Shown here piece after piece: positions 33,494-53,440 of a stretch of 64,000 nt of DNA; position 1 is the stretch's first letter; each line of letters starts with the position of its first letter. The stretch is from Nitrospiraceae bacterium (GTDB lineage Bacteria > Nitrospirota > Nitrospiria > Nitrospirales > Nitrospiraceae). The stretch is taken from the NCBI GenBank assembly GCA_037446055.1, contig JBBIJI010000016.1:1-64000 (forward strand). Reading direction: 5' to 3'. The notes beneath the pieces are model-generated. The model was not told where the DNA came from. It was given only the letters and a program-made list of their open reading frames with translations, and did no database searches. Both the position numbers and the translations under genes were made by a program.

Positions 33494-34897
33494 ATGAAGA
33501 GTCAGCGGGAAAAGACGATGACCGAAGAGTTGGGCGCCATCCTTGTCGTGGATGATGATGCCGAGATGCGGGATCTCGTCTGCGACGTACTGAGGGATCG
33601 AGGACATCAGGTGACGGCGATCGGCAGCGGGCAGGAGGCGCTCAAGCTGCTAGGCGAAGGGGATTACGATCTGGTCCTCACGGACCTGCGGATGAAGGGA
33701 ATGCTGGGTACCGAACTTTTGAATGAAGTCAAGCGGGCCTATCCGGACATCGGTGTCATCCTCATGACGGCGTTTGGATCCGTGGAAACTGCCGTCGAGG
33801 CGATGAAGCACGGAGCGAGCGACTATCTCACGAAGCCGGTGAAAAACGAGGAGTTGATTCGAGTGGTCGAGCGGGGAATCCGTGAGGCGTCGCTGCGCCG
33901 AGAAGTCAACCGGCTGAGGCGTGAGGTCCATAAAGAATACAGCTTCCATCAGATTCTCGGGAAGAGCAAGCCGATGCAGGAGGTGTTCGACCTCATCCGG
34001 CGCGTGGCCGACAGCCCGACGAACGTCTTAATTACGGGCGAGAGCGGGACCGGGAAGGAACTGGTCGCGAAGGCGATCCACTACAACAGCGATCGAAAGG
34101 ACGCGCCGTTCATTCCCGTCAACTGCGCGGCCATCCCCGAGCAACTCCTGGAGAGCGAGCTCTTCGGACACATGCGCGGCGCCTTCACGGACGCCAAGAT
34201 GGACAAGCGGGGGCTTTTCGAGGAAGCGCAGAAGGGAACCCTCTTCCTGGACGAGATCAGCGAGTTGCCGCTCATGCTGCAGGCGAAGCTGCTGCGGGCC
34301 ATTCAAGAGAAGGAAATTCGCCGGGTCGGTGCGACTAAGCCGATCGCGGTGGACGTGCGGATCATCGCCGCCACGAACCTAAATCTTGCCGACGAGGTCA
34401 AGGCGAAGCGATTTCGGGAGGATCTCTACTATCGGCTCAACGTCATCGAGCTCAAGCTGCCGCCTCTGCGAGAACGACGAGAAGACATCCCCTTGCTCGT
34501 CGACGCATTCTTGAAAAAGTGTGGAGAGACCCGCGGCAAAGCGGTGAAGGGCGTCGGTGAAGCGGCACTCGCCATGCTGATCGACTATACATGGCCCGGC
34601 AATGTGCGCGAATTGGAGAACGTGATCGAGCGGGCCGTGACTCTCAGCCGCGGCGAAAAGATTTCCCCCGACGATCTCCCGTCGACCGTACAGGGGGCGC
34701 GCGGCGACCGGCGCGTGCTCGACGAAGCCGCGGAGAAGACCCTGCCGTTGCATGAAATCGAGAAGGAATACATCAAGAAAATCCTCGAAAAGACCGGCGG
34801 GAACAAGTACCAGGCCGCCCACGCCCTTGGCATCGACCGCAAAACGCTGTATCGTAAGCTCGCCGAAATCGAAGGCAAGCCACAATCCGAAGAATGA
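33494..34897 (+). CDS. sigma-54-dependent Fis-family response regulator (NtrC-like)
   Basis: Receiver motifs (DLVLTDLRMKGMLG). Walker [16 protein letters not shown] variant of the GAFTGA loop. Motif [13 protein letters not shown]. Confidence 0.9.
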   Translation: MKSQREKTMTEELGAILVVDDDAEMRDLVCDVLRDRGHQVTAIGSGQEALKLLGEGDYDLVLTDLRMKGMLGTELLNEVKRAYPDIGVILMTAFGSVETAVEAMKHGASDYLTKPVKNEELIRVVERGIREASLRREVNRLRREVHKEYSFHQILGKSKPMQEVFDLIRRVADSPTNVLITGESGTGKELVAKAIHYNSDRKDAPFIPVNCAAIPEQLLESELFGHMRGAFTDAKMDKRGLFEEAQKGTLFLDEISELPLMLQAKLLRAIQEKEIRRVGATKPIAVDVRIIAATNLNLADEVKAKRFREDLYYRLNVIELKLPPLRERREDIPLLVDAFLKKCGETRGKAVKGVGEAALAMLIDYTWPGNVRELENVIERAVTLSRGEKISPDDLPSTVQGARGDRRVLDEAAEKTLPLHEIEKEYIKKILEKTGGNKYQAAHALGIDRKTLYRKLAEIEGKPQSEE

Positions 34898-34935: not shown

Positions 34936-36840
34936 ATGAAGGTCGTCAACAGTCCCGCTATGCGTGTTGCGACTTGGGCGATTCCGGTTCTCACCGTCGC
35001 GATCTTTACGCTCGATTCGTTCACACCGGTCGGAGTGGCTGTATCGGTCCTGTATATCATCCCGCTGCTGCTGACGTTCCTCTCCTCGCGTGAACGAGAC
35101 CCGCTCTACTTTTCCGCGGTCGCGACAGGGCTCATCTGGGTTGACGTCCTGTTGAAGCCCGCCGGTCTGTCGATTCCCTATGCAGCGGTCAACCGTTTGT
35201 TGGGCACGGTAGTCATCTGGGGGGGCGCCCTGGCACTCGTCCATTACAAGCGGACCCGGCGCCAGTTGATGTCAGAACGCGTTGAGCGGGCTCATGCCGA
35301 GGCCCTGATGGAGGCGGCGCAGGAAGCCCGCGCCTACGCCGACACGGCCTTGTTGGGCGCGTCTGCAGGCCGTCGAGAAGCGGAAGAGAAGTTTCTGATC
35401 AGCCAGCTCAGGCTGGAAGGCGTCATCCAGTCGGCCATGGATGCCATCATCACGGTGGACCAGGACCAGAACATCGTGTTGTTCAATCATGCAGCGGAAC
35501 AAATGTTCGGATGGTCCGCGCAGGATGCCATTGGGCAATCGCTGGACCGGTTCATCCCCGCTCGGTTCCGAGCGGCCCACCATCATCACATGGCTGAGTT
35601 CGGCAGGTCGGGGGCCACATCCAGACGGATGGGGACGCTCGGTCATGTCGTCGGTCTCCGCGCGACCGGGGAAGAGTTTCCCGTTGAAGCGGCCATCTCG
35701 CAGGTCGGCGTCGAAGGGAAGAAGTACTTTACGGTGATCTTGCGGGACATTACCGAGCGAAAAAAAGCCGAAGAGGCCCTTCGCGAGAGCGAGGAACGGT
35801 ATCGCCGTTTGATCGAAGTGTCGCCGGATGCAATCCTCGTCAATCGCGGGGACCGGATCGTCTTCGTCAACGACCAAGGGCTAAAGCTGTTCGGGGCTGT
35901 GAAGGCGGAGGAAATCCTCGGAAGGTCCCCCCTCGATCTCTTCCATCCGGACTATCATCAGGCGATCCGCGAACGTGTGCATCTTCTCCGCGAGGGGGCG
36001 AAGACGGTTCCCCTAATTGAGGAAAAGATTGTCCGGCTGGATGGAACCGTGCTCGATGTCGAAGTCGCGGCCGCAAGCTTCGTCGATCAGGATGGAGTCG
36101 GCATTCAGGTAATGATTCGAGACATTACCGAGCGCAAGCATCTCCAGGCCCAGTTGCGCAAAGCCGAGCGGTTGGCGGAGCTAGGGACGCTTGCGTCCGG
36201 CATGGCGCACGAGATCGGGACGCCGATGAACGTGATCCTCGGCCGGGCTGAGTATCTTCTGCAGCGGGTGAGGGAGGAACCGATCAAAAAAGGGCTGCAG
36301 ACCATCGTCAATCAGGTCGAGCGGATCACGAAGGTGATGAATCAGTTGCTTGCCTTTGCGAGAAGGCGTCCGCTAGAACGGCGACCGCTCGATTTGCGGC
36401 AGACGATCAGGGATAACCTCGAAATGTTCCAGGAGCGACTCGCGCGCAATCGTGTCAAAGTCGAAACCTCGTTCGCAAGCTCCTGCCCCTTGATCTGTGG
36501 CGATCCGGATCAGATGAGCCAGGTGATCATCAATCTCGTGATGAACGCGGTACATGCGATGCCGGAAGGGGGGACGTTGTCCATCGCGCTCGCGCCAGCC
36601 GGCAATGAGATGGTCGCCCTGTCTGTGAGGGATACCGGACACGGAATACCGCCGGACGTCAAGGATAAGATCTTCGATCCTTTCTTCACGACGAAGGAGT
36701 TCGGAAAGGGAACCGGCTTGGGTCTCACGGTGGTGAAAGGCATCGTGGAAGAACATGGGGGGGCGATCCGCGTCGACAGTGAACCAGGAAAGGGCACGAC
36801 GTTTACCATTCACTTGCCGGCATATGCCACGGACCCCTAG
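34936..36840 (+). CDS. PAS-domain sensor histidine kinase (membrane N-terminus, two PAS domains, HisKA, HATPase_c)
   Basis: H-box MAHEIGTPMNVILG. ATP-lid motifs DTGHGI and GTGLGL. Two PAS-like segments (ITVDQDQNIVLFN..., ILVNRGDRIVFVND...). Confidence 0.85.
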   Translation: MKVVNSPAMRVATWAIPVLTVAIFTLDSFTPVGVAVSVLYIIPLLLTFLSSRERDPLYFSAVATGLIWVDVLLKPAGLSIPYAAVNRLLGTVVIWGGALALVHYKRTRRQLMSERVERAHAEALMEAAQEARAYADTALLGASAGRREAEEKFLISQLRLEGVIQSAMDAIITVDQDQNIVLFNHAAEQMFGWSAQDAIGQSLDRFIPARFRAAHHHHMAEFGRSGATSRRMGTLGHVVGLRATGEEFPVEAAISQVGVEGKKYFTVILRDITERKKAEEALRESEERYRRLIEVSPDAILVNRGDRIVFVNDQGLKLFGAVKAEEILGRSPLDLFHPDYHQAIRERVHLLREGAKTVPLIEEKIVRLDGTVLDVEVAAASFVDQDGVGIQVMIRDITERKHLQAQLRKAERLAELGTLASGMAHEIGTPMNVILGRAEYLLQRVREEPIKKGLQTIVNQVERITKVMNQLLAFARRRPLERRPLDLRQTIRDNLEMFQERLARNRVKVETSFASSCPLICGDPDQMSQVIINLVMNAVHAMPEGGTLSIALAPAGNEMVALSVRDTGHGIPPDVKDKIFDPFFTTKEFGKGTGLGLTVVKGIVEEHGGAIRVDSEPGKGTTFTIHLPAYATDP

Positions 36841-37111: not shown

Positions 37112-37510
37112 ATGATGGTGGAAGGGAGAAAACTAGCCGTGTTGCTGGTCGTGGAAGATGATCAAGAGATGCGCAGCTTACTCTGTGATGAACTGTGGGG
37201 CGAGGGGTACCACCTGCGGGAAGCCAAGAATGGAGATGAGGCGTTGGCGGCAGTGATGGAATGCACCCCAGACCTCATTCTCACGGACCTGAAGATGCCC
37301 GCCGGCGGATTGGATTATGTGAACCGGTTACGCACCTTCGCTCCTCACTGTCCGATCATTCTCATGACGGCGTTCGGGGATATCCAACTCAAGGCGGCGG
37401 CGCTGAGGTCAGGCGCCACCGCCTATTTCGACAAGCCGGTGCGGGTATCGGAACTCAAGGCTACGATCAAGCGGTTGCTTCTGAATAACGAACTAGGCAG
37501 TGGAGTTTGA
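37112..37510 (+). CDS. single-domain response regulator (CheY-like receiver)
   Basis: Motifs VLLVVEDDQEMR, DLILTDLKMP, PIILMTAFGD. 132 aa. Confidence 0.8.
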   Translation: MMVEGRKLAVLLVVEDDQEMRSLLCDELWGEGYHLREAKNGDEALAAVMECTPDLILTDLKMPAGGLDYVNRLRTFAPHCPIILMTAFGDIQLKAAALRSGATAYFDKPVRVSELKATIKRLLLNNELGSGV

Positions 37511-37608
37511 GGCGAGAGGCAAGGGGCCCGCAAAGAAGGAAGTCAACTTAGTAGCAGAACGTGCCTAGCCCCGTGCCGCCTGCCCTCCGACAATCACAGA
37601 GGAACGAG

Positions 37609-39003
37609 ATGGCCGGATCTCAACCAAAGCATCCTTCGAGCCCTCCCTTCAGTGACCCGGTTCTTACGGCGCGCCTCGAAGCGATCAAACAGCTCGCCGG
37701 AGGATTGACCGATCGAGTGGCGGTCATGGATCGCAACTTCAATGTGATCTACGCGAACGAGTCGGCGTGGTCATCGGCCGCTGTCAGGAGCTCCGAAGCT
37801 CGTCAGGCCAAATGCTACGAAGCCTTTGCCCATCAAGCCGATCCTTGCGGCAATTGCCCGGCCATCAAAGTGTTCGAGACGCCGGAGGTGCGAGGCGTCT
37901 CCTGTTCAATCGACGGCGCGGCTTGCGGCATGGAGCAGGCCTTTCCACTCATTTCGAGTCAGGGCGAGGTTGGCTCCATGCTGGTGCTGTTCAAGAACGA
38001 GCAAGGCCAAATGGTTCGGGATCTCAAGCCTGTACAGGTCGAGAGTCCGTCACCGACGGTACGGGAGTCGTTGGGGGGGCTCCTCGGCCGGAGTCCCGCC
38101 ATGCAGCAGCTCTTCGACTTGATCAGCCTCGTGGCCGACAGTTCGGCGACCGTTCTGATCCAAGGCGAAAGCGGGACCGGAAAGGAACTCGTCGCCAAGA
38201 CGATCCACGAATTGAGTTACCGTCGGGACAAGCCTTTCGTGGTCGTCGACTGCGGGTCGCTGCCGGAAACCCTCCTCGAGAGCGAATTATTCGGTCATAC
38301 GAAGGGGGCCTTCACAGGTGCCGTGGCAAATAAGCGGGGCCTCTTCGAAGAAGCCGACGGGGGCACGATCTTCCTCGACGAGATCGCCGACACGACGCCG
38401 ACGTTTCAGGCGAAACTCCTTCGCGTCTTGCAGGAAGGAGAGGTCAAGCGGGTCGGCAGCAACCAACCGATCAAGATCGACGTCCGCATCGTGTCGGCGA
38501 CGAACAAGGATCTCAGCGAACTCGTCCGGTCCAAGGCCTTTCGTCAAGATCTCTACTATCGGTTGGCGGTGCTGCCGTTGTATCTGCCGCCCTTGCGGGA
38601 ACGAAAAGAGGATGTGCCGCTCTTGGTGCAGCACTTTGTCGCCGCCTCGTGCAAGCGGCATCGCCAACCGATCAGAACGGTCTCTCCGGCCGTCATGCAT
38701 GCGTTGACGGAAGCGCCCTGGCCGGGCAATATCCGTGAGTTGCAGCACTACATCGAGCGCGCCGTGGTCACGACGACCGGTCCTGAATTGGAGTGCAAGG
38801 ACCTGATCGCGGCGCGATCGGAATCAACGGCGGACGATCTGCGATCCGTTTCCCGCGGCGCGGCGCAACAGGCGGAACGGACCCGGATCCTTCAGGCGCT
38901 CCGACAGGCCGGCGGCAATCGCTCGAAGGCAGCCAAGCTTCTCAAGGTCAGCCGCGCCAGTCTCTACAATAAGCTTCGCGAATATCAGATAGACGAAGCG
39001 TAG
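37609..39003 (+). CDS. sigma-54 enhancer-binding protein with N-terminal Cys-rich PAS-like sensor (no receiver domain); likely activator of the downstream multicopper oxidase
   Basis: Walker [16 protein letters not shown] present ([15 protein letters not shown]). Motif [11 protein letters not shown]-terminal HTH. Sensor region carries C-x10-C-x2-C...C...C ([18 protein letters not shown]...CSIDGAACG). Start placed at the ATG at 37609 with an AGAGGA Shine-Dalgarno; the ORF-track GTG at 37561 is also possible. Confidence 0.85.
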
Positions 39004-39329
39004 CGTGCGATTCCAGACCCTTTCGCAAGCTTCCGCTTTGTGTCGGCATCAACCGCTCTCTTGAGCCACTGGAAGATGCCAGTGAAAGGCGGCGAGGGTT
39101 TTTCGGGAGGGACATCTGCCCCAACACTCCCCACTTTGCGTGGATGAACGTCTAACGGATTAGACAGCGCAACTCGTTGAATTCAAAGTATCCGACGATC
39201 TACAAAAAGGTTTGTGTCTAACCGGGTGGAATTTCGCCTCGCCCGAACGTAGGGCTAAGTTTCCTCGACCGCGCGCTAACCCTTGGTTTCGTCGAAGTAA
39301 TTCCTTGCGAGAGCCGGCTGGACAATTTG

Positions 39330-39345
39330 CGGCACATGAGTTGCG
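39330..39345 (+). promoter_or_regulatory. candidate sigma-54 (-24/-12) promoter cGGCAC-N5-TTGCg
   Basis: Read directly: ggcacatgagttgc with GG-N10-GC spacing. It lies about 290 nt upstream of the multicopper oxidase start and immediately downstream of a sigma-54 activator gene. Confidence 0.5.
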
Positions 39346-39358
39346 GTTAGCCGAGGCC

Positions 39359-39434
39359 GCTGGTGAAGGTCTGGGTGATTTTGGACCGGCCTCCGAATGA
39401 CCCGCCCTCCGCAGCGGAGGGACCCTTCACCAGC
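39359..39434 (+). other. structured 5' leader: 11-bp perfect outer stem (GCTGGTGAAGG/CCTTCACCAGC) enclosing a 7-bp inner hairpin (CCCTCCG-cag-CGGAGGG)
   Basis: Read directly. It lies between the sigma-54 promoter and the upstream ORF/multicopper oxidase gene. Confidence 0.35.
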
Positions 39435-39472
39435 TCTTAATCTTTAATTAACTTAGGCAAGGGGAGAGACGC

Positions 39473-39550
39473 ATGGGCAAAAAGGCCGGACACGTTCCTC
39501 GCCTCAAGCCCCTCGCCTTGTGCCGCTACCCCAAGTTGCTGTTTCGGTAG
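39473..39550 (+). CDS. 25-codon upstream ORF (MGKKAGHVPRLKPLALCRYPKLLFR) with Shine-Dalgarno GGGGAG; candidate leader peptide or small protein
   Basis: ATG at 39473 preceded by aaggggagag with a 6-nt spacer. TAG stop at 39548-39550. Too short for the ORF track. Confidence 0.25.
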   Translation: MGKKAGHVPRLKPLALCRYPKLLFR

Positions 39551-39625
39551 GAGGCCGGGAACCACGGAGCAAGGCTGTTTACACGAACCGCGCGGACGCG
39601 GTCATTTCACACAAGGAGGCCAGTT

Positions 39626-42600
39626 ATGACGTCTTACTTCTATAACCCCAAGCGCAGGCGGTGTCGCGACCAGGCGATGTTCGGCCTGCAAGCTGCGGTG
39701 TTCGCGAGTAGCCTGCTCGCTGCACCGTGGCTTTTTGCGGCCGGGCCGGGAGATCAGTCCCATCAGGGACATGCGACTCCTGTCTCAATGCCGGGCTGGA
39801 CCCAAGCATTGAAGGGCCAGACGGTGGTGGAAAACGCCATCGAGGGCCGCGCGGGCAACGCGGAAAAGATGGAGATGCAGCACCATCGTTTAATGCAGAA
39901 GCTCGAGCAGCAGGCCCAGCAGGATGCCAGGGCCCAGCAGACATCGGGCGCCTTCAACAGTATGTCGATGATGCACCAATATATGGGCCAGGACGGCAGC
40001 AGCTTCCTGCTCATGACGGATGCGGCGAAGGGCGAACCGGTGTTGAGCACAGGCGGTCGTTGCCCGGCCAACGCACCGACCAAGCAGTACGATGTCTCGA
40101 TGATCAACGTCGAGATCACGCTGAACCGGTGGTTGGATTACTATCCCGGTTACATGTACGTGCTGACGGAGAACCTGGACAAGGTTCGAGCGGAGGAGGC
40201 GAAGAACAAAGCGGCACGAGAGAAGGAGGGGTTCGACCCCGGGGCGGTGAACACGGGATTGCAGGGCGATATGATTCAACCATTGGTCCTGCGCGCCAAC
40301 CAAGGCGATTGCGTCAAGATGACGCTCCGCAACCAGATGGAAGGCGAGGATGGGAGTCTGTTCATCCAGGCCTCCAGCATGATCGTGAGCGCGACGGGCA
40401 AGCCGGCGACGACAACCAATCCCGATTCGATCCTGGCGCCCGGCAAGTCGCAGGAATTCGAGTGGTATATCCACCCCCACATGCAGGAAGGGGTGCGGCA
40501 GTTCCATTCCTACAGCCATGACCGCGAGTTGACGGTGCTGGGATTGTTCGGAGCCTTCGTCATCGAGCCGAAGGGTTCCAGGTATCTCGACCCGTTGGGG
40601 ACCGGCCCGGCGCCTGAGGCGAAGAGCGGCTGGCAAGTGATGATTGATAACGGCTCGGGCCCGGATTTCCGCGAGCACGTGATTTTCTATCACGAGGTCG
40701 GGGACGAGGCGTTCCGGCCCCTGAACAAGAAGGGCGACTTCTTGCCCCAGCGCGATCCGCTTACGGACGCCTATCGTCCAGGCGGCCGCGCACTGAACTA
40801 CCGCAGTGAACCGTTCGGTATCGATCAGATGCATTTGCAGCACGAGTACTTCGGGTTCGAAGATGAATCCATGGCCTATAGCGCCTATACCTTCGGCGAT
40901 CCGCCGACGACGATTCCGCGCGGATATCTCGGTGACCCGACGAAGTGGCGTATTGTGCATGGCGGGTCGGAAGTGTTCCATTCCCACCATCCCCACAGCG
41001 GGTCCATCCGTTGGATCCGCAGCCCGCGCGCGGAACCGCAGGACTTCTGGGCCGCAGCAGCGGACGGGCCGATCAAGTACCCAGTGGTTCGTACCAAATC
41101 CGACCGGGTCGATGTGGAAGTCATCGGACCGTCTGAGGCGCTGGATCTCGAGGCCGAAGGCGGCGCCGGGCAGTCTCAGCATTTAGCCGGCGAGTTTCTG
41201 TTCCACTGCCACGTGGCGCACCACTATGTCGCGGGCATGTGGGGCTATGGCCGGGTGTATAACACGTTGCAAGTCGGCCCAGGCCACACCGACACGATGC
41301 CGGACCTCCGGGAGTTGCCGGACCGTCAAGGCCGCATCAAGATGGGCGTGACCTCCGATAAGCTCATCGGCACCACGGTGGACTGGTTCGGCAAGCAGTT
41401 CAAGATCGTGGCGCGCAACCAGAAGACCGATTGGAAAGCCAATCCGGCAGTCGTGAACATCAAGGATTGGGTCGAGATGTATCTGCCGGCGCAGGGCAAG
41501 CCTGGCCATACGGACGACGAAAAGGGCCAGATCATGTCCTATGACGCGACCGTGTGGGATTGGAAGTGGGATGGTGATGTCGCGAAAGGCGAGCGGGAGA
41601 GCACGGCCAAGTATCCGAAGTATCCCGCCGCGGCCAAGTGGGATGACAGCACCAGACCGAACATCCTGTTCGATCCGACAACAGGCAAGATGTCGTGGCC
41701 GCTCTTTAAACCGCACTTCGGCAAGCGGGTGCCGTTCTCGGCCAACCACAGCGGTGCGCCCTGGTTGGAGCCGATCCACCAAGACGAAAACGGCGAGCGG
41801 ACGAGCGAACCGGCGCGGCCTGGCGAAAACGGCCGTTGGAGCTTGTGTCCGGATAATGCCAACACGAAGTTCTACAACATCAAGTTCATCCGGCTTCCCA
41901 TCACCCTGGCCAAGAAGCAGGGGAAGGAACCGCCGATCGTGGACAAGGACGGTCTGATCTACGTCTTGGCCGAGGAAGAAAGGCTGGTTCGGGCCAACGA
42001 CGACCTGAAATATCCGCTCGTGCTCCGCGCGAACGTGTATGACTGCGTGGACTCGATCCTGACCAGCGAGTGGGACGACGACGACTTCACCAACTTTCAG
42101 GCGTCCAAGATCAACATCCATCCGCATTTCTTCCAGTTCGACACGGGGAACTCGGATGGGGTGATCTCGGGCTTTGAATACGAGATGTCGGTCCGGCCCT
42201 ATACCATGCACGAGAAGAAGAACAAGCATGGGTTGCCGGTGCCGATGAACTCCAAGCTGGTGGAGGCAGCGAAAGCCGGTGCGAAGTCGATCAAGATCAA
42301 GATGGCGACCGGTGCGACCAAGTATCACGTGAATACGGAGTTGCAAGTCGGCGCGGACTGCTTGGAGCCCAGCAAGGACACTACGACGTCCTTGAAGCGG
42401 GACGCGAGCTGCGCCGAAGTTGCACGGATCAAGGAAATCAGCGGCGACACGATCACGTTCCACAAGCCGCTGAAGCACAACCATCCGGTGGGCGATATCG
42501 TGACGCCGGAGTTCGTGCGCTATCGGTGGTGGGTGGACGTGGACATGGGGACCGTGTTCTGGCATGACCACGCGTTCGGCGCGACGACCTGGCCGCACGG

Positions 42601-44572
42601 CGGATTCGGCGTGACGATCGTGGAGCCCTACGGGTCGACCTATCATGATCCGAAGAACGGCAAGCTGGTCTGGAGCGGTCCGATCGCGGACATTCACAGC
42701 AGCGAGCCGATCGGCTATGGAGTCAGCGGCAGCTTCCGTGAGCTGATGGTGTCCATCCACGACACGGTGCCTCACACCGTGAACGTGATCCAGGCGGGTA
42801 ATCCGCCCGGACAGCCGGTCGAAGTGGCGCTGGAAGCCGGTAAGACGGTGTCGTTCCAGATGCCGGAAAAGATCCTCAATGCGCCGAATCAGTACATCAA
42901 CGGCGGGACGCATACGACGGGGAGCGGTCTCAACTTCAGAGCCGAACCCTTTGCGCAACGTCTCGCGAACAATCCCGATACGTCCAAGCTGTTCAGCAGC
43001 GCGATCCACGGAGATCCCGATACGCCCTTGCTTCGCGCGTATGTGGGTGACACCGTGGTGTTCCGCCTGTTGCACCAGCTCATGAACGAGTCCCACGTGT
43101 GGACGCTCTCCGGCCATACGTTCCTGACGGAACGGTTTGCGGGAGACGCCAATCGGAAGTACTCGATTCACGTCGGGATTGCCGAGCGGTATGACCTGGT
43201 GACCAAGGCCGGTGGATTCCAAGGCATGCCGGGCGACTACATCCACTTCAATGGCCGAAGCTCGCACTTCGCCGAGGGTGGGTGGGGTATCTTCCGTGTG
43301 CTGGGGAAGCACGCGGACGACCTGATGCATCTGCCGACCGGCACGAAGCCGGTGGAAATCCCGGCCGTGCCGTCGTCAGTGTGCCCGTCCGATGCTCCTG
43401 TGAAGAACTTCAACGTGGTGGCGATGGATCGCCCGATGAAGCTCAACGCGAAGGCGCCGGACGCGATCGAGGTGGACTTCGAGCGTAAGATCGAGATGAC
43501 CGTGCCTGAGGGCAAGATCTACGCACTCGAGGAGGAAGTGACCAAAGTGGCCGGCGAAGTGATGCCGAATCCGCTCACGCTGCGGGTCAACTTGGGTGAC
43601 TGCATCAAAGTAAACCTGAAGAATAAGATGAAGGCGAGCCGGGCGTCGTTCTTCGCGCCGGGCCTGGCCTTCGATCCGAAAGACAGCCTGGGCCTGAACG
43701 TCGGGAACAACCCCGGCGATCAGACGATCGCTCCAGGCGAAAGCCGGACCTACACCTACTACGCGCATCCTGCCAACAAGGAGACGACGTCGTTGGTGTG
43801 GGATGGTGGCAACATCGTGACGAATCCGCGCAATGGTCTGTACGGCGCGGTGATCGTCGGGCCTCGTGGGTCGCAGTATCGCGATCCGGTCACGGGCGCC
43901 GACATCTCGCAGAAGAACTCCTGGAGGGCTGACGTGATCGTCGATGCCAGCCTGCCGGAGAATGTCGGCAAGCGGAATTACCGGGATGTGGCCCTCTTCT
44001 TCCAGGACGAGGACAACATCATCGGAACCGCGTTCATGCCCTATGTGCAGAACGTCGCGGGGCTGACGGCGGTCAACTACCGATCGGAACCGTACAAGTT
44101 CCGCGAGGAGCAGGGGTGCTCGCTGGGCAAGATCTTCCAGCCCTGCGTCGTAGCTAAGCCGGAAGATCCGGTGACGCCGTTGATCGAGGCGCACGCCGGC
44201 GATCCGGTCCGTATCCACGTCATCGGCGCCAACAGCGAGCAAAACGGGATGTTCGGGATCGAGGGCCATGAATGGCCGATCGAGCCCTACATGCCAGGGG
44301 CCGACCAGATCAGCGTCGTGGAGTACGCCGGGTCCGAGACCCTGGATGTCTTCCTCCGCGGCGGTGCGGGCGGACCGTATCGTCAGGTGGGAGACTTCGT
44401 GTGGTCCAACACCCGGTTGCCCTACACGCAATCAGGTCAGTGGGGCTACCTCCGTGTGTTGCCGGTCGGCGACTCCCGGATTCAACCGCTCGGCGCTGCG
44501 GCAATGGGCGCCAAGCGTGCGGAGACTCTACCGGAGCCCCAGGCTATTCCGACGGCCATGAAGCAGGAATAG
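39626..44572 (+). CDS. giant multicopper oxidase-like protein (1648 aa, multiple cupredoxin domains; MofA/MnxG-class size)
   Basis: Shine-Dalgarno AAGGAGG 6 nt upstream. N-terminal RR-containing signal-like segment. Copper motifs HSHHPHSG (HxH), LFHCHVAHHYVAGMWGY (HCH...H...GM), HPHFFQFD and WHDHAFGATTWPHGGFG (HxH). Confidence 0.85.
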   Translation: MTSYFYNPKRRRCRDQAMFGLQAAVFASSLLAAPWLFAAGPGDQSHQGHATPVSMPGWTQALKGQTVVENAIEGRAGNAEKMEMQHHRLMQKLEQQAQQDARAQQTSGAFNSMSMMHQYMGQDGSSFLLMTDAAKGEPVLSTGGRCPANAPTKQYDVSMINVEITLNRWLDYYPGYMYVLTENLDKVRAEEAKNKAAREKEGFDPGAVNTGLQGDMIQPLVLRANQGDCVKMTLRNQMEGEDGSLFIQASSMIVSATGKPATTTNPDSILAPGKSQEFEWYIHPHMQEGVRQFHSYSHDRELTVLGLFGAFVIEPKGSRYLDPLGTGPAPEAKSGWQVMIDNGSGPDFREHVIFYHEVGDEAFRPLNKKGDFLPQRDPLTDAYRPGGRALNYRSEPFGIDQMHLQHEYFGFEDESMAYSAYTFGDPPTTIPRGYLGDPTKWRIVHGGSEVFHSHHPHSGSIRWIRSPRAEPQDFWAAAADGPIKYPVVRTKSDRVDVEVIGPSEALDLEAEGGAGQSQHLAGEFLFHCHVAHHYVAGMWGYGRVYNTLQVGPGHTDTMPDLRELPDRQGRIKMGVTSDKLIGTTVDWFGKQFKIVARNQKTDWKANPAVVNIKDWVEMYLPAQGKPGHTDDEKGQIMSYDATVWDWKWDGDVAKGERESTAKYPKYPAAAKWDDSTRPNILFDPTTGKMSWPLFKPHFGKRVPFSANHSGAPWLEPIHQDENGERTSEPARPGENGRWSLCPDNANTKFYNIKFIRLPITLAKKQGKEPPIVDKDGLIYVLAEEERLVRANDDLKYPLVLRANVYDCVDSILTSEWDDDDFTNFQASKINIHPHFFQFDTGNSDGVISGFEYEMSVRPYTMHEKKNKHGLPVPMNSKLVEAAKAGAKSIKIKMATGATKYHVNTELQVGADCLEPSKDTTTSLKRDASCAEVARIKEISGDTITFHKPLKHNHPVGDIVTPEFVRYRWWVDVDMGTVFWHDHAFGATTWPHGGFGVTIVEPYGSTYHDPKNGKLVWSGPIADIHSSEPIGYGVSGSFRELMVSIHDTVPHTVNVIQAGNPPGQPVEVALEAGKTVSFQMPEKILNAPNQYINGGTHTTGSGLNFRAEPFAQRLANNPDTSKLFSSAIHGDPDTPLLRAYVGDTVVFRLLHQLMNESHVWTLSGHTFLTERFAGDANRKYSIHVGIAERYDLVTKAGGFQGMPGDYIHFNGRSSHFAEGGWGIFRVLGKHADDLMHLPTGTKPVEIPAVPSSVCPSDAPVKNFNVVAMDRPMKLNAKAPDAIEVDFERKIEMTVPEGKIYALEEEVTKVAGEVMPNPLTLRVNLGDCIKVNLKNKMKASRASFFAPGLAFDPKDSLGLNVGNNPGDQTIAPGESRTYTYYAHPANKETTSLVWDGGNIVTNPRNGLYGAVIVGPRGSQYRDPVTGADISQKNSWRADVIVDASLPENVGKRNYRDVALFFQDEDNIIGTAFMPYVQNVAGLTAVNYRSEPYKFREEQGCSLGKIFQPCVVAKPEDPVTPLIEAHAGDPVRIHVIGANSEQNGMFGIEGHEWPIEPYMPGADQISVVEYAGSETLDVFLRGGAGGPYRQVGDFVWSNTRLPYTQSGQWGYLRVLPVGDSRIQPLGAAAMGAKRAETLPEPQAIPTAMKQE

Positions 44573-44650: not shown

Positions 44651-44695
44651 GGGGGGGGAGCTGCGCGCAATGTGTGGCTCCCCTGTCTTTTTTTA
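44651..44695 (+). terminator. rho-independent terminator after the multicopper oxidase gene
   Basis: Stem GGGGAGC/GCTCCCC with a 15-nt loop, followed by tgtcttttttt. Confidence 0.6.
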
Positions 44696-44808: not shown

Positions 44809-45738
44809 GTGAAACAAATCATGACAAAGGCCGTCGTCGCGGTGCTCGTAGCCGGCTGCCTCAGCGTCCCCGCCTACGCCTATGAAGAGGTGACGGTCAC
44901 CGATGGCGGGAGTATCTCCGGATCCGTCACGCTTGTAGGGGAGGTGCCGAAGCCCAAGGGGTACAACCTCACGACGCTGCCGGATGCCATCTATTGCGGA
45001 CGTATCTCTGACGGCAGGGGGTGGCGTCTGCTCCAGCCGTTCAATGTGGGTGAGCACGGAGAATTCCGCCAGGTCGTCGTGTTGCTCCAGGAAATCGAGA
45101 AGGGGAAACCGTTCGGCGCGTACAAGCCTCCTCGGATCGAGGCGCGGGATTGCCGCTTCATGCCGTTCGTGACCGTCGTTCGCGATCACCACGATGTCGT
45201 GGTCGTAAATATGGACCCGGCGATGCACGATATCCAGGCCTATGAAACCTCGCATCTGGGGCCTCGGGTCTTGTTCAACGTTCCGCTTCCCATCAGCCCG
45301 CGGTATCCCCACGAAGCCGGGCTCAGCGCGCACTTCCACAAGCATTACGAAGGCACGCCGATGAACCAAACGGTCAAGATGACCAAAGGCCGCGAGATTT
45401 TCACGATGCAGTGCGGGTTTCACGCGTACATGGAAAGCTGGGCGTTGGTCGTGGATCATCCCTACTACGCGATTACCGACCAAGACGGCCGGTTCGAGAT
45501 CGACGACATTCCGCCCGGCACATACAAGGTCACCATCTGGCATCCCTATGTGCGCGAAACGTACGAAGAGACTGTGATCATCAAGCCGAAAGAGGAGACG
45601 ACCGTCGGCTTCAAAGTCGCTGCTCCGACCGGCCGCCTTTATGCCAATCAAATGGTCGAGAACGCATACGTGCGCTACACGATTACGGAGGACGTTCAGT
45701 CCCAAATCATTCCGACGTTGGAGAAGCAGACGTTCTAG
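44809..45738 (+). CDS. secreted cupredoxin-like protein (amicyanin-type C-x2-H-x2-M site) fused to a C-terminal beta-sandwich domain (carboxypeptidase-regulatory-like)
   Basis: GTG start with AAGGAGG 5 nt upstream. Lipobox VAGC. Motifs HHDVVVVNMDP (candidate His ligand) and QCGFHAYM (Cys-x2-His-x2-Met). C-terminal motif DGRFEIDDIPPGTYKVTIWH. Paralogous to 59356-60177. Confidence 0.7.
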   Translation: MKQIMTKAVVAVLVAGCLSVPAYAYEEVTVTDGGSISGSVTLVGEVPKPKGYNLTTLPDAIYCGRISDGRGWRLLQPFNVGEHGEFRQVVVLLQEIEKGKPFGAYKPPRIEARDCRFMPFVTVVRDHHDVVVVNMDPAMHDIQAYETSHLGPRVLFNVPLPISPRYPHEAGLSAHFHKHYEGTPMNQTVKMTKGREIFTMQCGFHAYMESWALVVDHPYYAITDQDGRFEIDDIPPGTYKVTIWHPYVRETYEETVIIKPKEETTVGFKVAAPTGRLYANQMVENAYVRYTITEDVQSQIIPTLEKQTF

Positions 45739-45837: not shown

Positions 45838-46746
45838 GTGGCAGGACCGACACTACATGCCGGATTTGTAAGCCTGATGGCATGGAGCCTACTGTCCGCC
45901 GTCGCGCAGGCCGATCACCTCACGCCGAAACATGACCCCTGGGCGCAGCCCTGGGAGCTGGAGCGGTTGGCGTTGCTGGAGGTTCCCGATGACATGGTGT
46001 TCGTGCCGGCAGGATCGTTCTTGATGGGCAGCGATCCTCGGGTGGATCGCGCGGCTGGGCCGCAGGAACAACCGCAGCGATCGGTCGTGCTCGATGCTTT
46101 TGCCATCGACCGGTACGAGGTCACGAACGTTCACTATCTCCGGTTCGTGTTGGCCACAGGGGCCACGTGGCCGCCGTATTGGACGCAGGATCCCTTCCCG
46201 GAGAAGCAGTCGCGGCACCCGGTCATTGGGGTGAGTTGGGAGGAAGCGGATCGCTACTGCCGGTGGGTGGGGAAGCGTCTTCCGACCGAGGCGGAATGGG
46301 AAAAGGCGGCGCGAGGGGGCGATGGTCGCATCTTCCCCTGGGGCGACGAGCCGGCGGGGTGGATCAAGAGCAACATCGCCCATCCGGGGTCCAAACGAGG
46401 CGTGAAGTATCCCCCGTTGGCGAACGTCGACCGGTATGAGCGCGGCGTCAGCCCTTACGGGGTCTACCAGATGGCGGGCAACGTGAGCGAATGGGTCGCC
46501 GATTGGTTTGATCCTGAATATTACCGGAAAGGAGTCAACGAGAACCCGAGAGGGCCGGCCGACGGCGAAGACAAGGTCTTCAGGGGAGGGTCGTGGAACG
46601 AGGACCCGGAGGTGGCGCGATCGGCCGGGCGGAATGCGGCAGCGCCGGACCACAGGAGTTATCTGATCGGGTTCCGGTGCGCGAGATCAGTCATAAACGT
46701 CAATGGTCAATTGTCAATGGTCAACGGAGGCGGACAAAGTCATTAG
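45838..46746 (+). CDS. FGE-sulfatase fold protein, single-Cys PvdO/NirV-like subfamily, secreted (copy 1); C-terminal 19 aa encoded by family-2 repeat
   Basis: GTG start. Signal peptide ends in AQA. Motifs RGGSWNEDP and GFRCARS. The tail VINVNGQLSMVNGGGQSH is translated from the repeat gtcataaacgtcaatggtcaattgtcaatggtcaac. Confidence 0.8.
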   Translation: MAGPTLHAGFVSLMAWSLLSAVAQADHLTPKHDPWAQPWELERLALLEVPDDMVFVPAGSFLMGSDPRVDRAAGPQEQPQRSVVLDAFAIDRYEVTNVHYLRFVLATGATWPPYWTQDPFPEKQSRHPVIGVSWEEADRYCRWVGKRLPTEAEWEKAARGGDGRIFPWGDEPAGWIKSNIAHPGSKRGVKYPPLANVDRYERGVSPYGVYQMAGNVSEWVADWFDPEYYRKGVNENPRGPADGEDKVFRGGSWNEDPEVARSAGRNAAAPDHRSYLIGFRCARSVINVNGQLSMVNGGGQSH

Positions 46747-46868: not shown

Positions 46869-47852
46869 ATGGAAGCGAAGAATATGGGTGCGTATAGGAA
46901 GCTTGAGTGGGTCATCAACGCGTTGCTGATCGCGGCAGCGATCCTCGCGCTGGTGAAGGTCGCGTGGGGACTCGATACGCAGGATATCACGGTCGAGTGG
47001 ACCGCTGAAGGGAAGAAGATCGCCGCGCAACGGGTGGCCGACTGGCCGGTCAAGGAGGAGATGGTCCTGGTCCCTGCCGGCGAATTTCTCATGGGCAGCG
47101 ACAAGAAAGTGGATCGCTTGGCGTATCGCTCCGAGATGCCGCAGCGCAGCGTGTATCTCGATGCATTCGAGATCGACAAATACGAAGTGACCGCGCTGCA
47201 GTACCTCAAGTTTGTGCTGGCCGCGAACCGGCCACCACAGCTCGACTGGCGATATGACGGCGGCAACTTCCAGGAAACCATGGCGCATCACCCGATCATG
47301 CACGTGAGCTGGTACGACGCGGACGCCTATTGTAAGTGGGCCGGGAAGCGCCTCCCGACCGAAGCCGAGTGGGAGAAGGCGGCGCGCGGGACGGATGGTC
47401 GGATCAATCCGTGGGGCAACCAGACGGCAGGATTGAGCCGGGCGAACTTCGGCCGCTCGGGACTGTCCGGGCCGGTTCGCGACCGGCCCGAACGGCTGCT
47501 GCTGTATCCGCCGATCATCTCGGTCGACAAATATGAGAACGCCGTGAGTCCCTACGGCATCCATCAGATGATCGGCAACGTGGCTGAATGGGTGGCGGAC
47601 TGGTACCAACCCGATTATTACGCGACGGCTCCGAGCCGCAATCCGAAGGGGCCGGAAACAGGAACGCAAAAAGCCTTCCGCGGCGGCGGCTGGATCGACA
47701 GCACCACCACGATGCGGGCGGCGATGCGGAATGGGACCGACCCCAACACGAAGATGAATTGGCTGGGCTTCCGGTGCGCGCGCGACGCGCAGAATGATCG
47801 GGCCCTATCTGAGTCGCCGCAGGTACGGGTCTCGCGGGCGAGTGGGGAATAA
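46869..47852 (+). CDS. FGE-sulfatase fold protein, single-Cys PvdO/NirV-like subfamily, secreted (copy 2)
   Basis: Strong Shine-Dalgarno AAGGAGG. Signal/TM segment. Motifs MVLVPAGEFLMGSD, RGGGWIDSTT and GFRCARD. Confidence 0.85.
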   Translation: MEAKNMGAYRKLEWVINALLIAAAILALVKVAWGLDTQDITVEWTAEGKKIAAQRVADWPVKEEMVLVPAGEFLMGSDKKVDRLAYRSEMPQRSVYLDAFEIDKYEVTALQYLKFVLAANRPPQLDWRYDGGNFQETMAHHPIMHVSWYDADAYCKWAGKRLPTEAEWEKAARGTDGRINPWGNQTAGLSRANFGRSGLSGPVRDRPERLLLYPPIISVDKYENAVSPYGIHQMIGNVAEWVADWYQPDYYATAPSRNPKGPETGTQKAFRGGGWIDSTTTMRAAMRNGTDPNTKMNWLGFRCARDAQNDRALSESPQVRVSRASGE

Positions 47853-48510: not shown

Positions 48511-48672
48511 TCCCCATCATAGGCCGAATGGCCTATTCCCCTGCCTGACAAGAATCACATTGGATGCCGGAGGCAGTCAAGGCGCCTCTGCGAAAGATTG
48601 CGTAGGCTTGCGGCGCGTGTGGGCTGTCTCGATACATCGACAATTCGACACATCTTACAAAGGAGGAGCGTG

Positions 48673-49365
48673 ATGAAGAGATACGATCAGAGAGTGAGGG
48701 CCACGAGCCTGATCATCATGGTCTTGCTGGCTCTCGGGACCATGTTTGCGCCCTGGTCGGCCTGGGCGGAGGAGACCGGCAATATGGTGGTGTTCAAGGG
48801 CGGGTTCATGAATCTGAGCGAGGACCGCGGCAGGCAGATTTTTACCGACACGAATGGCCTCACGGGAGTCAACGGAGGCAACGCCGGGTGGTATGTCGGA
48901 GCGTGGTTGGACTTGGGCCTTTCCAAAGATGCCTGGGGTCTGATGAAGGGAATCACAGGGATAGGAGAAATCGGTTTGCAGTTCAACCGGATCAATTCAG
49001 CGAGAGTGAATAACACCGCTGGGAGCGTGGCTGCCCATACTGTCACCGGTATTACCGCAGTCGATCCTCAGGTGGTCCAACTCACCATGGTGACCATCGA
49101 CGTGGCGCCGAAGCTGAAGTTTATGGAGGGCAACGCGTTTCGGCCCTGGATCATTCCTGTTGGGTTGGACATCCACGTGATCAGCCCCCCCTCGAATCGA
49201 ACGCAATATCTCGACGTCGGCGTGCAATTCGGCGCGGGGTTTGAATATGCAGTCTGGAAGGCCTTCAAGGTTGGAGCGGATGCCCGTTACCACTTGACGG
49301 CTAACATGACCAACACGAACAACTCTTACTTCCAGGTCGGGCCGTACGTCGGGATTACGTTCTGA
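48673..49365 (+). CDS. outer-membrane beta-barrel protein (OmpW/porin-like)
   Basis: Shine-Dalgarno AAAGGAGG. Signal peptide ends in AWA-EE. Alternating amphipathic strands. C-terminal Phe (GITF). Confidence 0.65.
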   Translation: MKRYDQRVRATSLIIMVLLALGTMFAPWSAWAEETGNMVVFKGGFMNLSEDRGRQIFTDTNGLTGVNGGNAGWYVGAWLDLGLSKDAWGLMKGITGIGEIGLQFNRINSARVNNTAGSVAAHTVTGITAVDPQVVQLTMVTIDVAPKLKFMEGNAFRPWIIPVGLDIHVISPPSNRTQYLDVGVQFGAGFEYAVWKAFKVGADARYHLTANMTNTNNSYFQVGPYVGITF

Positions 49366-49732: not shown

Positions 49733-50839
49733 ATGCACCCCCCTCCACGCCTCGTCTACTGGGAAACCACGAAGCGCTGCAATTTACGCTGCGCGCACTG
49801 CCGTGCAATTCCGCAAACGCAGTCGTCTCCGGACGAGCTGTCGTTGGCCGAAGGCTTCAGACTCATCGACGCGATCGCCGAAGTGGGGCAACCCATTCTC
49901 GTGCTCACCGGCGGTGAGCCGCTGCTCCGGCGCGATCTCTTCGACTTAGCGACCTATGGCGCGTGGCGAGGGCTGCGAATGGCTCTGGCCACCAACGGGA
50001 CGCTTGTCAACCGCGACATGGCCAAACATGTCGTCGAGGCCGGATTCAAGCGAGTGTCGATCAGTCTCGACGGGCCGGACGCCGAGACGCATGACCGATT
50101 CCGCCGGGTACCGGGCGCGTTTGATCAAGCGGTGGATGGATTCATTCATCTGAAGGAGCTCGGCATGTCGATGCAGGTGAATACCACCGTCACCCTGCAG
50201 AACCGGGAACGACTTGAAGAGATCTATGAGTTGGTGCGGAAGCTCGGCGCCGACGCCTGGCATCTATTTTTGCTCGTCCCGGTCGGGTGCGGGCTGGAGA
50301 TCATGCGGACCGCCCAGCTCACTCCACGGGATTATGAAGAAGTGTTGTATTGGATCGACGAACTCGCTCAAACCGAGACGATGGAAATCCGCGCAACTTG
50401 CGCGCCGCACGCGCAGAGGATTCGGCTCCAGCGGCAGGCGATTGTTGAAGCCGGCGTTGATTCCCAGTCCGGTGATCGAACGGGTCGAGTTTCTAACTCA
50501 GAACTCAGAACTCAAGACTCAGAACTCCGAGCTTCCCGTCGCGGCTGCCTGGCCGGAACGGGCATTTGCTTTGTGTCTTATCGCGGGGAGGTCTTTCCAT
50601 GCGGCTACCTCCCGGTGTCAGCCGGGAACGTGCGCCAGCAATCCTTCAAATCTATCTGGGAGGAGGCGTCCGTTTTCGAGGAATTGCGTGATCCGAACTT
50701 GCTGCTGGGGAAGTGCGGAGTGTGCGAATATCGAATCGTCTGCGGCGGCTGCCGCGCGCGGGCCTTCGGGCAGACGGGCATTTATCTCTACGAAGAACCG
50801 TTCTGCAATTATCTTCCTGGCTCGGCGAGGACTGAATAG
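49733..50839 (+). CDS. radical SAM protein with C-terminal SPASM/twitch domain (anSME/NirJ/PqqE-like maturase); carries an in-frame repeat-derived 13-15 aa insertion
   Basis: Radical SAM motif CNLRCAHC. C-terminal motifs GCLAGTGICFVSYRGEVFPCG and CGVCEYRIVCGGCRARAF. The insertion VSNSELRTQDSELRAS is encoded by aactcagaactcagaactcaagactcagaactccgagc (50495-50532). No Shine-Dalgarno at the first ATG, so the start is uncertain. Confidence 0.8.
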   Translation: MHPPPRLVYWETTKRCNLRCAHCRAIPQTQSSPDELSLAEGFRLIDAIAEVGQPILVLTGGEPLLRRDLFDLATYGAWRGLRMALATNGTLVNRDMAKHVVEAGFKRVSISLDGPDAETHDRFRRVPGAFDQAVDGFIHLKELGMSMQVNTTVTLQNRERLEEIYELVRKLGADAWHLFLLVPVGCGLEIMRTAQLTPRDYEEVLYWIDELAQTETMEIRATCAPHAQRIRLQRQAIVEAGVDSQSGDRTGRVSNSELRTQDSELRASRRGCLAGTGICFVSYRGEVFPCGYLPVSAGNVRQQSFKSIWEEASVFEELRDPNLLLGKCGVCEYRIVCGGCRARAFGQTGIYLYEEPFCNYLPGSARTE

Positions 50840-52967: not shown

Positions 52968-53440
52968 GGGCGGCGCCGTGCGTCGACTCAAACGATATAG
53001 CGAGGTCGCGGGCGATACGCCCTCAATAAGCTTGGCCATGCAAATCGAACGCCGAAGGGTATTCATTTGGCATCCCTTCTGGGCCACCAGAAGTTCGACA
53101 GCTCATCGAGCAAGGTCGATTGCCTCGATGCGCTCGGAAACGGTGAACCATACATCATTCTCCGTTGAGGCTCTCTCGACGAACGCTTCATACTTACTTA
53201 ACACCGCCCATTCTCTACAGCCCCGCCAGCGAAGGATCTCAGCGATAGGGAGCTTAACATTCGGTCCGCCCAGCCTTCTGTGGCATTGTGCAGCAGCTCA
53301 ATGAGGGTGTTTGTAGCTCTTTGACCCAGAGACGTACTGCATCCGCGCGGCAAGTCCCGTGGAATATCTTTCAACACGCATGAATAGTTAGCTCATTCCT
53401 CGGCTTGCTCGTGATTACAGGTGACGAAGAGGTGTAGTCC

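Follow-up and report, generated by a model that had tools for sequence, protein, structure and literature searches.

A giant MnxG-type multicopper oxidase of Nitrospira with a conserved sigma-54 promoter and a putative structured leader RNA

Here we describe a giant multicopper oxidase (MCO) and the regulatory region in front of its gene, both encoded in a 64-kb window of genomic DNA (the whole stretch that was analyzed, 64,000 nucleotides [nt] of contig JBBIJI010000016.1 from a Nitrospiraceae bacterium). The open reading frame (ORF) at 39626..44572 (+) has an ATG start and 1648 codons and encodes a 1648-amino-acid (aa) protein that is the Nitrospira orthologue of the MnxG-type six-domain giant MCOs; residues are numbered along this ORF, and nucleotide coordinates are those of the window. 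We regard the assignment of the protein to this family and architecture as close to certain. The observations are best accommodated by an exported MnxG-type Nitrospira oxidase that has Mn(II) as its most likely substrate and is controlled by a sigma-54 promoter and a leader RNA, an overall explanation to which we give a probability of roughly 0.5. An earlier note on this DNA had already called the gene a giant 1648-aa MCO, and its coordinates, length, and motifs were exactly as given there.

The family assignment is carried by similarity to Bacillus MnxG in both sequence and fold. Bacillus MnxG (9bxa_A) was the single strong sequence match in the PDB (E value 1.1e-84, 288 bits), and the same chain, deposited as "Mnx H340A complex from Bacillus sp. 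PL-12," was the best PDB fold match of our structural model (Foldseek E 6.7e-62; template modeling [TM] scores of 0.59/0.55), with ceruloplasmin of human and rat (E ~1e-22) and the coagulation factors V/VIII next. Domains 1-2, 3, 4-5, and 6 align to MnxG in order, with domain 1 falling on MnxG residues 9-190, domain 4 on 661-850, domain 5 on 855-1007, and domain 6 on 1071-1204 (E 5e-8); domain 6 also aligns with MnxG domains 4 and 2. When domain 3 is set against MnxG, IHPHFFQFD pairs with FHIHFVKFD and FWHDH with FFHDH. The HCH motif described below aligns with MnxG H334-C335-H336...M345, and H533 aligns with residue 340, which is Ala in the deposited chain; His340 of the wild type, read from the title of the entry, should be a type-1 ligand. 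The earlier note had compared the protein with MnxG by size class, and the strength of the sequence match, the collinearity of the six domains, and the top fold match upgrade that comparison to homology.

Bacillus sp. PL-12 MnxG (9bxa), a spore Mn(II) oxidase, shares with the Nitrospira MCO the same six-domain order and the same placement of copper. The Nitrospira protein is, however, ~420 residues longer: it has a signal peptide and a His/Met-rich segment at its N-terminus, its insert between domains 2 and 3 is larger, and domain 3 carries an insertion. Bacillus MnxG lies on the spore surface, whereas the Nitrospira MCO is predicted to be periplasmic, and the sigma-54 control and leader RNA described below are further points of difference. 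Among NCBIfam models the best match was NF041487 copper_ox_MnxG (E 2e-35, in five stretches). Pseudomonas putida MnxG, which this model represents, is likewise a giant MCO of a Gram-negative bacterium, but the model spans 1894 positions compared with 1648 residues here, and the operon content differs.

The protein contains six cupredoxin domains in three tandem odd/even pairs (Table 1). Profile-profile comparison of the domain alignments related the odd domains to one another (probabilities: domain 1 vs 5, 99.5%; 1 vs 3, 95.8%; 3 vs 5, 96.0%) and likewise the even domains (2 vs 4, 97.0%; 4 vs 6, 98.7%; 2 vs 6, 87.0%); self-BLAST of the MCO protein did not find these internal repeats, which are visible only in the profile-profile comparison. 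An AlphaFold2 model of aa 130-1260 (domains 1-4), computed with a 73-sequence alignment reaching down to 28% identity, had a mean predicted local distance difference test score (pLDDT) of 89.7 and a predicted TM score of 0.90, with domain 1 above 90 and the insert at aa 553-740 mostly at 82-98. Domains 5 and 6 are predicted from the Pfam match (domain 5), the MnxG alignments, and the repeat analysis. Pfam annotation, which the earlier note had proposed as a check, matched Cu-oxidase_3 at E 1.8e-12 (aa 1304-1414), with weaker matches to Cu-oxidase_2 and Cu-oxidase. The expectation of more than three cupredoxin domains was borne out by the profile repeats, the confident model of domains 1-4, and the fold matches, and the alternative of only three domains plus unrelated insertions is contradicted by the six-domain repeats, the model, and the MnxG alignments.

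Two segments, aa 40-145 and aa 553-740, showed no likeness to any of the six cupredoxin domains in the profile-profile comparison. The second of these, a folded insert, is retained in the deep-family consensus, and domain 3 itself carries a variable insertion near aa 850-950. The N-terminal segment at aa 40-145 carries conserved QHHRLM and MSMMHQYMGQDGSSFLL motifs as well as MSMMHQYMG and matched neither Pfam nor any PDB chain. A fused MnxE/F-like domain was considered for this segment and dropped because it had no PDB match.

One catalytic copper set is predicted; its type-1 site would lie in domain 2 and its trinuclear cluster at the interface of domains 2 and 3. The type-1 ligands would be H452, C528, H533, and M538 of domain 2, and the cluster would be held by H455, H457, H527, and H529 of domain 2 together with H832, H834, H980, and H982 of domain 3, with all four motifs in place: H-x-x-H-x-H (452/455/457), HCHxxxHxxxxM (527-538), HxH (832/834), and HxH (980/982). 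The stretch LFHCHVAHHYVAGMWGY at aa 524-540 is the HCH-type copper motif. The several HxH motifs and the one HCHxxxHxxxxGM motif reported in the earlier note were recovered; there are seven HxH motifs in all, and 117 orthologues show no change in those at aa 452/455, 527, 832, and 980. The residues invariant in this set include H452, H454, H455, H457, H527, C528, H529, H532, H533, H832, H834, H980, and H982. All 12 copper ligands are invariant in the 117 orthologues and invariant or nearly so in the 73-sequence deep alignment, and because of this invariance a non-catalytic scaffold, as in factors V/VIII, is ruled out. The HxH motifs at aa 283, in domain 1, and at aa 951 lack conservation (H285 is present in 12% of orthologues and H951 in 42%) and are not copper sites.

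The remaining domains appear to be free of copper. Asn takes the place of the type-1 Cys in domains 4 and 6 (by eye), domain 4 is without trinuclear-cluster His, and no free Cys or His ligands were found in domains 1, 4, and 6. The remaining conserved Cys are paired, one pair per odd domain (146/229, 741/807, and 1253/1326) plus 1498/1507. Ceruloplasmin and factors V/VIII likewise have six cupredoxin domains. In ceruloplasmin (PDB 1KCW/4ENZ), type-1 coppers sit in domains 2, 4, and 6 and the trinuclear cluster is shared by domains 1 and 6, whereas the Nitrospira MCO would have a single type-1 copper, with the cluster shared by domains 2 and 3. Of the ceruloplasmin-like architecture suggested earlier, the domain count thus stands and the copper topology does not.

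Export to the periplasm is likely, given a predicted signal peptide with a positive start, a conserved hydrophobic core, and a conserved FAA/SA(E) end near aa 39. The twin-Arg signal-like N-terminus of the earlier note held in part. An RRR sequence at aa 10-12, followed by a hydrophobic stretch, is present here and in many orthologues, and the signal peptide itself stands; the twin arginine is missing from N. neomarina-type and more distant orthologues, the alignment showed no match to the twin-arginine translocation (Tat) consensus S/T-R-R-x-F-L-K at the MCO N-terminus, and use of the Tat route is not established.

Mn(II) is proposed as the substrate on the grounds of homology, because the sole characterized relatives of the protein are the MnxG proteins of Bacillus and Pseudomonas; considered by itself, this substrate has in our view a chance that is at best even and may fall a little short of that. 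Following established MCO chemistry, the type-1 copper would take single electrons from the substrate and the trinuclear cluster would reduce O2 to water. Mn(II) would be oxidized to Mn(III), and the role of the enzyme would lie in periplasmic oxidative-stress or metal management rather than in energy conservation. Several points weigh against this proposal. Identity to Bacillus MnxG in the fold alignment is ~20%, and the protein does not qualify as an equivalog of Pseudomonas-type MnxG, since it scored 121.1 bits against the NF041487 cut-off of 3100. Bacillus MnxG acts in a complex with MnxE and MnxF, whereas the conserved neighbors here are different proteins; the N-terminal segment and a 176-aa neighbor, the sole products tested for likeness to MnxE/MnxF, had no PDB match, 9bxa included, at E<=10. 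In the literature searched, we did not find a report of Mn(II) oxidation by Nitrospira cultures. Furthermore, the function of the Nitrospinae homologue was described as "not experimentally confirmed" (PMC9477243), and the substrate of an MCO is poorly predicted by homology (bioRxiv 10.1101/2024.12.25.630300).

The composition of the N-terminal segment bears on a different substrate. CueO and PcoA have Met-rich Cu(I)-binding regions, which this Met- and His-rich segment (MSMMHQYMG, QHHRLM) resembles, and the MCO could accordingly be a periplasmic cuprous or ferrous oxidase, similar to CueO/PcoA or to ceruloplasmin, that serves Cu(I)/Fe(II) detoxification or homeostasis with metal bound by the His/Met-rich segment. 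The Met axial ligand at the type-1 site, as in metallo-oxidases, a weak NCBIfam match to TIGR01480 copper_res_A, and the presence of a CopD-like gene in one related locus (L003) and of resistance-nodulation-division (RND) efflux genes in another (L004) are consistent with such a role. These copper and efflux neighbors are not conserved, however, and no CueO or CotA chain was among the PDB sequence matches at E<=0.01. The nearest characterized relatives are, by a wide margin, Mn oxidases, and CueO and PcoA/CopA homologues are tallied separately in nitrifier genomes (PMC13374858). We therefore consider a cuprous or ferrous oxidase unlikely.

The breadth of the family is relevant to a further alternative. 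An exhaustive HMMER search with aa 130-1260 returned 1798 representative clusters at E<=1e-3, of which 380 reached E<=1e-30; these were mostly 1400-3800 aa long, the few named ones came from Planctomycetota, Anaerolineae, Actinomycetota, and Clostridium, and most were labeled "hypothetical." In a family this large and almost wholly unannotated, the Nitrospira protein could be an oxidase of some other small substrate (a phenolic or other organic compound, NO, or hydroxylamine), with its relation to MnxG reflecting shared ancestry only. Mn-oxidizing MCOs have laccases among their relatives and can themselves act as laccases (bioRxiv 10.1101/2024.12.25.630300), and a second, small MCO and a Crp-type regulator are encoded 9-11 kb downstream. 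No particular substrate has positive evidence in its favor, however, and a laccase would be of no obvious need to chemolithoautotrophic nitrite oxidizers, which makes this alternative quite improbable next to oxidation of Mn(II).

Close relatives of the MCO are widespread in Nitrospira. More than 100 full-length orthologues at 68-91% identity were all from Nitrospira/Nitrospirota, and the N. tepida copy, at 91% identity, is annotated "putative Manganese oxidase." A genome scan covering one genome per species, seeded by the closer alignment A4 since the deep alignment A3 was too divergent as a seed, found relatives in 587 stretches; the best 80 of these 587 were all Nitrospira and included N. 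moscoviensis (L018) and "Candidatus N. defluvii" (L056), whose orthologue is 84% identical over aa 130-560. These matches place the window in a Nitrospira genome. The exact MCO sequence of the window had no entry in the protein collection searched. Tandem second copies of the giant MCO occur in several Nitrospira genomes: L001 (15770-20653), L038, L046, L048, L052, L060, L062, L071, L074, and L084.

The protein family has been known since 2013, and the window contributes the copy of one more species. Luecker et al. (2013; PMC3578206) described a multicopper protein of the periplasm, strongly conserved between Nitrospina gracilis and "Candidatus N. defluvii" and similar to MnxG of Bacillus SG-1, and proposed that it oxidizes Mn(II) to Mn(III) as a defense against reactive oxygen; that protein belongs to the same family, and nothing essential differs. 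In addition, mnxG-like genes were present in all Nitrospira metagenome-assembled genomes from sand filters (bioRxiv 10.1101/2024.12.25.630300). In soils and the ocean, as in wastewater plants and drinking-water filters, most nitrite is oxidized by Nitrospira and Nitrospina. The giant MCO is among the best-conserved large proteins of these nitrite oxidizers, and its homologue in Nitrospinae ranks with the most abundant oxidoreductases of Pacific metaproteomes, where Saunders et al. (2022) ranked this "MnxG" as the second most abundant Nitrospinae oxidoreductase (PMC9477243). If the enzyme is a Mn oxidase, nitrite oxidizers could add to the formation of Mn(III) and Mn oxides in sand filters and oxygen-deficient waters. 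New here are the exact ligand set and domain map, which are usable for expression and mutagenesis; the list of conserved partner genes; and an MCO-specific leader RNA that is without a database entry and offers a handle on the inducing signal of the enzyme. The signal to which the regulatory region (enhancer sites, promoter, and leader RNA) responds would in turn point to the physiological substrate.

The predicted sigma-54 promoter of the MCO gene is confirmed by conservation. Of 82 leaders, 74 have GGCA[CT]-N5-T[TC]GC at ~50 nt upstream of the RNA core; among the eight that do not, most are one base off. The call was made on this conservation and not on a consensus match, as a strict sigma-54 consensus scan (<=1 mismatch) missed the promoter, which has two mismatches, and found sites no more commonly than expected by chance. 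The conservation and the adjoining activator gene bear out the placement of the MCO gene, in the earlier note, as the first gene after a sigma-54 promoter. That activator, a bacterial enhancer-binding protein (bEBP) without a receiver domain, closes a four-gene regulatory order that recurs across Nitrospira and starts with a response regulator, itself sigma-54 dependent, whose order is kept in most Nitrospira loci at 76-95% identity. Of 69 evaluable loci, 43 have the activator gene next to the MCO gene, and in eight more it lies within 6.5 kb. Its N-terminal 170 aa (37561-38085) are Cys-rich (C-x11-C-x2-C) and weakly PAS-like (PAS_4, E 0.036), and the Cys cluster, which looks conserved, is possibly a redox or metal sensor.

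We infer that the conserved TTAGACA and TGTCTAA motifs upstream of the promoter are activator-binding sites. Relative to the RNA core, TTAGACA lies at about -223 and TGTCTAA at about -168 in the window and in N. moscoviensis, N. defluvii, and N. bockiana; TGTCTAA follows 48 nt past the end of TTAGACA, and one or both motifs occur in 69 of 82 leaders. The sigma-54 promoter would then be driven by the adjoining activator and its two-component partners. Mn oxidation in Pseudomonas requires sigma-54 and the sigma-54-dependent regulator MnxR together with two sensor kinases (PMC11409713). We treat the sigma-54 link common to Pseudomonas and Nitrospira as a parallel that is suggestive by analogy and not as proof of function.

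Between the promoter and the MCO start lies a leader RNA that very probably is genuine, structured, and maintained by selection. It begins just past the expected transcription start and folds as a three-way junction (minimum free energy, -48 kcal/mol; z score, -2.9). Helix P1 (GCUGGUGAAGG/CCUUCACCAGC) is 99.3% paired among 83 distinct sequences, with compensatory double changes at 6 of its 11 pairs. P2 (GGGU/ACCC) encloses the invariant 13-mer GGACCGGCCUCCG, and P3 is a variable hairpin, present in 83 of 83 sequences in 64 distinct forms, that usually has a GNRA-type loop, often GCAA or GUAA. At the DNA level the 13-mer, GGACCGGCCTCCG, occurs unchanged and once upstream of the MCO gene in ~80 of 85 loci, and each of the second tandem MCO copies examined (L001, L002, and L084) is also preceded by it. 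A covariance model gave exactly one match per giant-MCO gene and none elsewhere in 1.25 Mb.

Metagenome contigs extend this association. A scan with a 16-base pattern returned 80 hits, and the metagenome contigs held 30 strong leader-RNA matches; 49 of the 80 hits were without a covariance-model match and were taken as chance. All 23 metagenome matches with at least 600 nt downstream led into a giant-MCO homologue, some of them only ~55% identical. The covariance model had no match in the loci of relatives at 69%, 52%, and 49% identity, and because of this the leader RNA is limited to Nitrospira proper. The 4227 covariance models of Rfam 15 gave no match to region 39000-39700 at E<=10. The leader RNA may represent a new cis-regulatory class specific to giant MnxG-like oxidase genes of Nitrospira, although its reading as a ligand-sensing riboswitch is doubtful. 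As side observations, the second MCO copies of L001 and L084 have their own sigma-54 promoter and leader RNA, and a 72-aa ORF called across the leader RNA in L001 (15539-15757) is probably spurious.

Complementarity between the core of the leader RNA and the ribosome-binding site (RBS) suggests translational control by sequestration of the RBS. The RBS sequence GGAGGCC is complementary to the invariant GGCCUCC of the core, and CGGCCUCC is its reverse complement, with GGAGGCC(G) as the extended form. Of 83 leaders, 75 have GGAGGCC at the start of the MCO gene, and among the 262 GGAGG-type sites found elsewhere in these loci 67 have it (Fisher p 8e-27). In addition, a GGAGGCCG box within the leader may have a regulatory role. 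The GGACCGGCCUCCG core could bind a small ligand, for example the metal of the enzyme, or switch its pairing with GGAGGCC(G), and MCO translation would in this way be gated after sigma-54 transcription. Two results count against this mode of control: the core-RBS pairing is not formed in the minimum-energy fold of the leader, and GGAGGCCG also precedes four other genes of the window (44799, 46857, 9554, and 60601), namely the CarboxypepD_reg-like gene, the second FGE-sulfatase gene, and two unrelated genes. Caution toward the sequestration model is also warranted by the presence of GGAGGCC near the start in 25 of 51 and 25 of 41 orthologues of two downstream cluster genes. The 290-nt whole-leader fold showed no significant extra structure (z score, -1.5). 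A 25-codon ORF, MGKKAGHVPRLKPLALCRYPKLLFR, at 39474-39551 inside the leader has its own GGAG-like site; it is not conserved among the aligned leaders of orthologues and is probably not a gene.

Table 1. Positions of the MCO domains, regulatory elements, and neighboring genes in the window
Feature	Residues (aa)	Position	Strand	Basis or remark
Sigma-54-dependent response regulator (receiver, AAA+, HTH_8)		33494..34897	+	Pfam; starts regulatory block
Histidine kinase, two PAS domains		34936..36840	+	Pfam; position conserved
Stand-alone receiver-domain protein		37112..37510	+	Pfam Response_reg 4.2e-24; conserved just upstream of activator
Sigma-54 activator (bEBP) without receiver domain		37561..39003	+	Pfam Sigma54_activat 1.2e-71, HTH_8
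Candidate enhancer sites, GTCTAA-N4-TTAGAC palindrome, then TGTCTAA		39152..39221	+	Leader alignment A1
Predicted sigma-54 -24/-12 promoter, GGCAC-N5-TTGC		39331-39344	+	Conservation
Three-way-junction leader RNA, ~76 nt		39359..39434	+	Fold and covariation; covariance-model match 39350-39452
GGAGGCCG box		39550..39557	+	Exact complement of invariant core CGGCCUCC
Ribosome-binding site GGAGGCC		39615..39621	+	5 nt upstream of MCO start
Predicted signal peptide	1-39	39626..39742	+	N-terminus alignment; cleavage ~A39/G40 by eye
N-terminal His/Met-rich segment	40-145	39743..40060	+	Alignments
Cupredoxin domain 1	146-335	40061..40630	+	MnxG alignment, repeats, model
Cupredoxin domain 2	336-552	40631..41281	+	Type-1 copper and four trinuclear-cluster ligands (predicted)
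Folded insert between domains 2 and 3, mixed alpha/beta	553-740	41282..41845	+	Model
Cupredoxin domain 3	741-1010	41846..42655	+	Four trinuclear-cluster ligands (predicted)
Cupredoxin domain 4, degenerate	1011-1250	42656..43375	+	Repeats, MnxG alignment
Cupredoxin domain 5	1251-1440	43376..43945	+	Pfam, MnxG alignment, repeats
Cupredoxin domain 6, degenerate, no copper ligands	1441-1625	43946..44500	+	MnxG alignment, repeats
Intrinsic-terminator-like hairpin, 14 pairs and seven T		44654..44694	+	~80 nt past MCO stop codon
Secreted 309-aa CarboxypepD_reg-like protein		44809..45738	+	Pfam; conserved downstream partner
Two FGE-sulfatase (SUMF1/EgtB/PvdO-family) genes		45838-46746, 46869-47852	+	Pfam 7e-62, 1e-59

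A conserved downstream partner of the MCO gene encodes a 309-aa CarboxypepD_reg-like protein, which adjoins it in 48 of 59 loci; in five of the exceptions a second MCO copy comes first. The protein collection contains an entry from an NCBI contig that matches this protein at 100% identity. The 309-aa protein carries a ~150-aa insertion with invariant C63, C115, H140, and C202-x2-H205-x2-M208 (alignments A2 and A7). C-x2-H-x2-M type spacing recalls small blue copper proteins, and the Cys/His/Met cluster is a possible metal site. Its conserved position and this putative site would fit an MCO that is fed with electrons by a protein, either this neighbor or c-type cytochromes, and that serves as an O2-scavenging or overflow branch of the nitrite-oxidizer chain. 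A 52%-identical MCO in locus L206 is followed by a c-type cytochrome gene, with another multi-domain cytochrome c in the cluster, and a cytochrome bd-like oxidase gene is found in the L005 cluster and in the Nitrospina cluster (PMC3578206, Fig. 6). At 84-87% identity, the MCO is also more conserved than its neighbors, and its Nitrospinae homologue peaks at low O2 (PMC9477243).

Other observations count against this arrangement, however. Its model was poor (pLDDT 59.8, and <50 in the region of the putative metal site), and a PDB profile search and a permissive Pfam scan found no cupredoxin in it, only a CarboxypepD_reg-type beta-sandwich. A terminator-like hairpin lies between the two genes in the window, and reduction of O2 in the periplasm would conserve no energy. 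We thus judge an oxidase fed by a protein partner to be distinctly unlikely compared with an exported enzyme acting on Mn(II).

In 46 of 59 loci, the MCO gene is followed within 3.5 kb by one or two FGE-sulfatase genes, and the pair in the window received no specific assignment from NCBIfam. NirV, of the FGE-sulfatase family, accompanies the copper enzyme NirK, which by analogy hints that FGE-sulfatase-family proteins may aid the maturation of copper proteins. Outside Nitrospira proper, the L206 locus combines a pair of 52%-identical MCOs with an extracytoplasmic function (ECF) sigma factor, rubrerythrin, and two multi-domain c-type cytochromes, without the leader RNA, and an FGE-sulfatase gene and CarboxypepD_reg-like genes stand beside the MCO pair. 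This gene content suggests a conserved functional module that includes electron-transfer proteins outside Nitrospira proper.

Several further genes of the window deserve mention. A 402-aa two-domain MCO is encoded at 55291-56499; it has a signal peptide, contains two HCH motifs (YHCHVNAATHMDMG and FHCHRVPH), and scored below the cut-offs of the NirK, CopA, and laccase models. A third FGE-sulfatase gene (52182-53087, -) lies near this small MCO gene, as does the gene for the Crp/Fnr-type regulator (53441-54214). Closer to the giant MCO, an outer-membrane beta-barrel gene is found at 48598-49365, and 5 kb downstream of the MCO gene a radical SAM/SPASM protein (49733-50839) comes near heme b synthase AhbD (425 bits vs a cut-off of 500).

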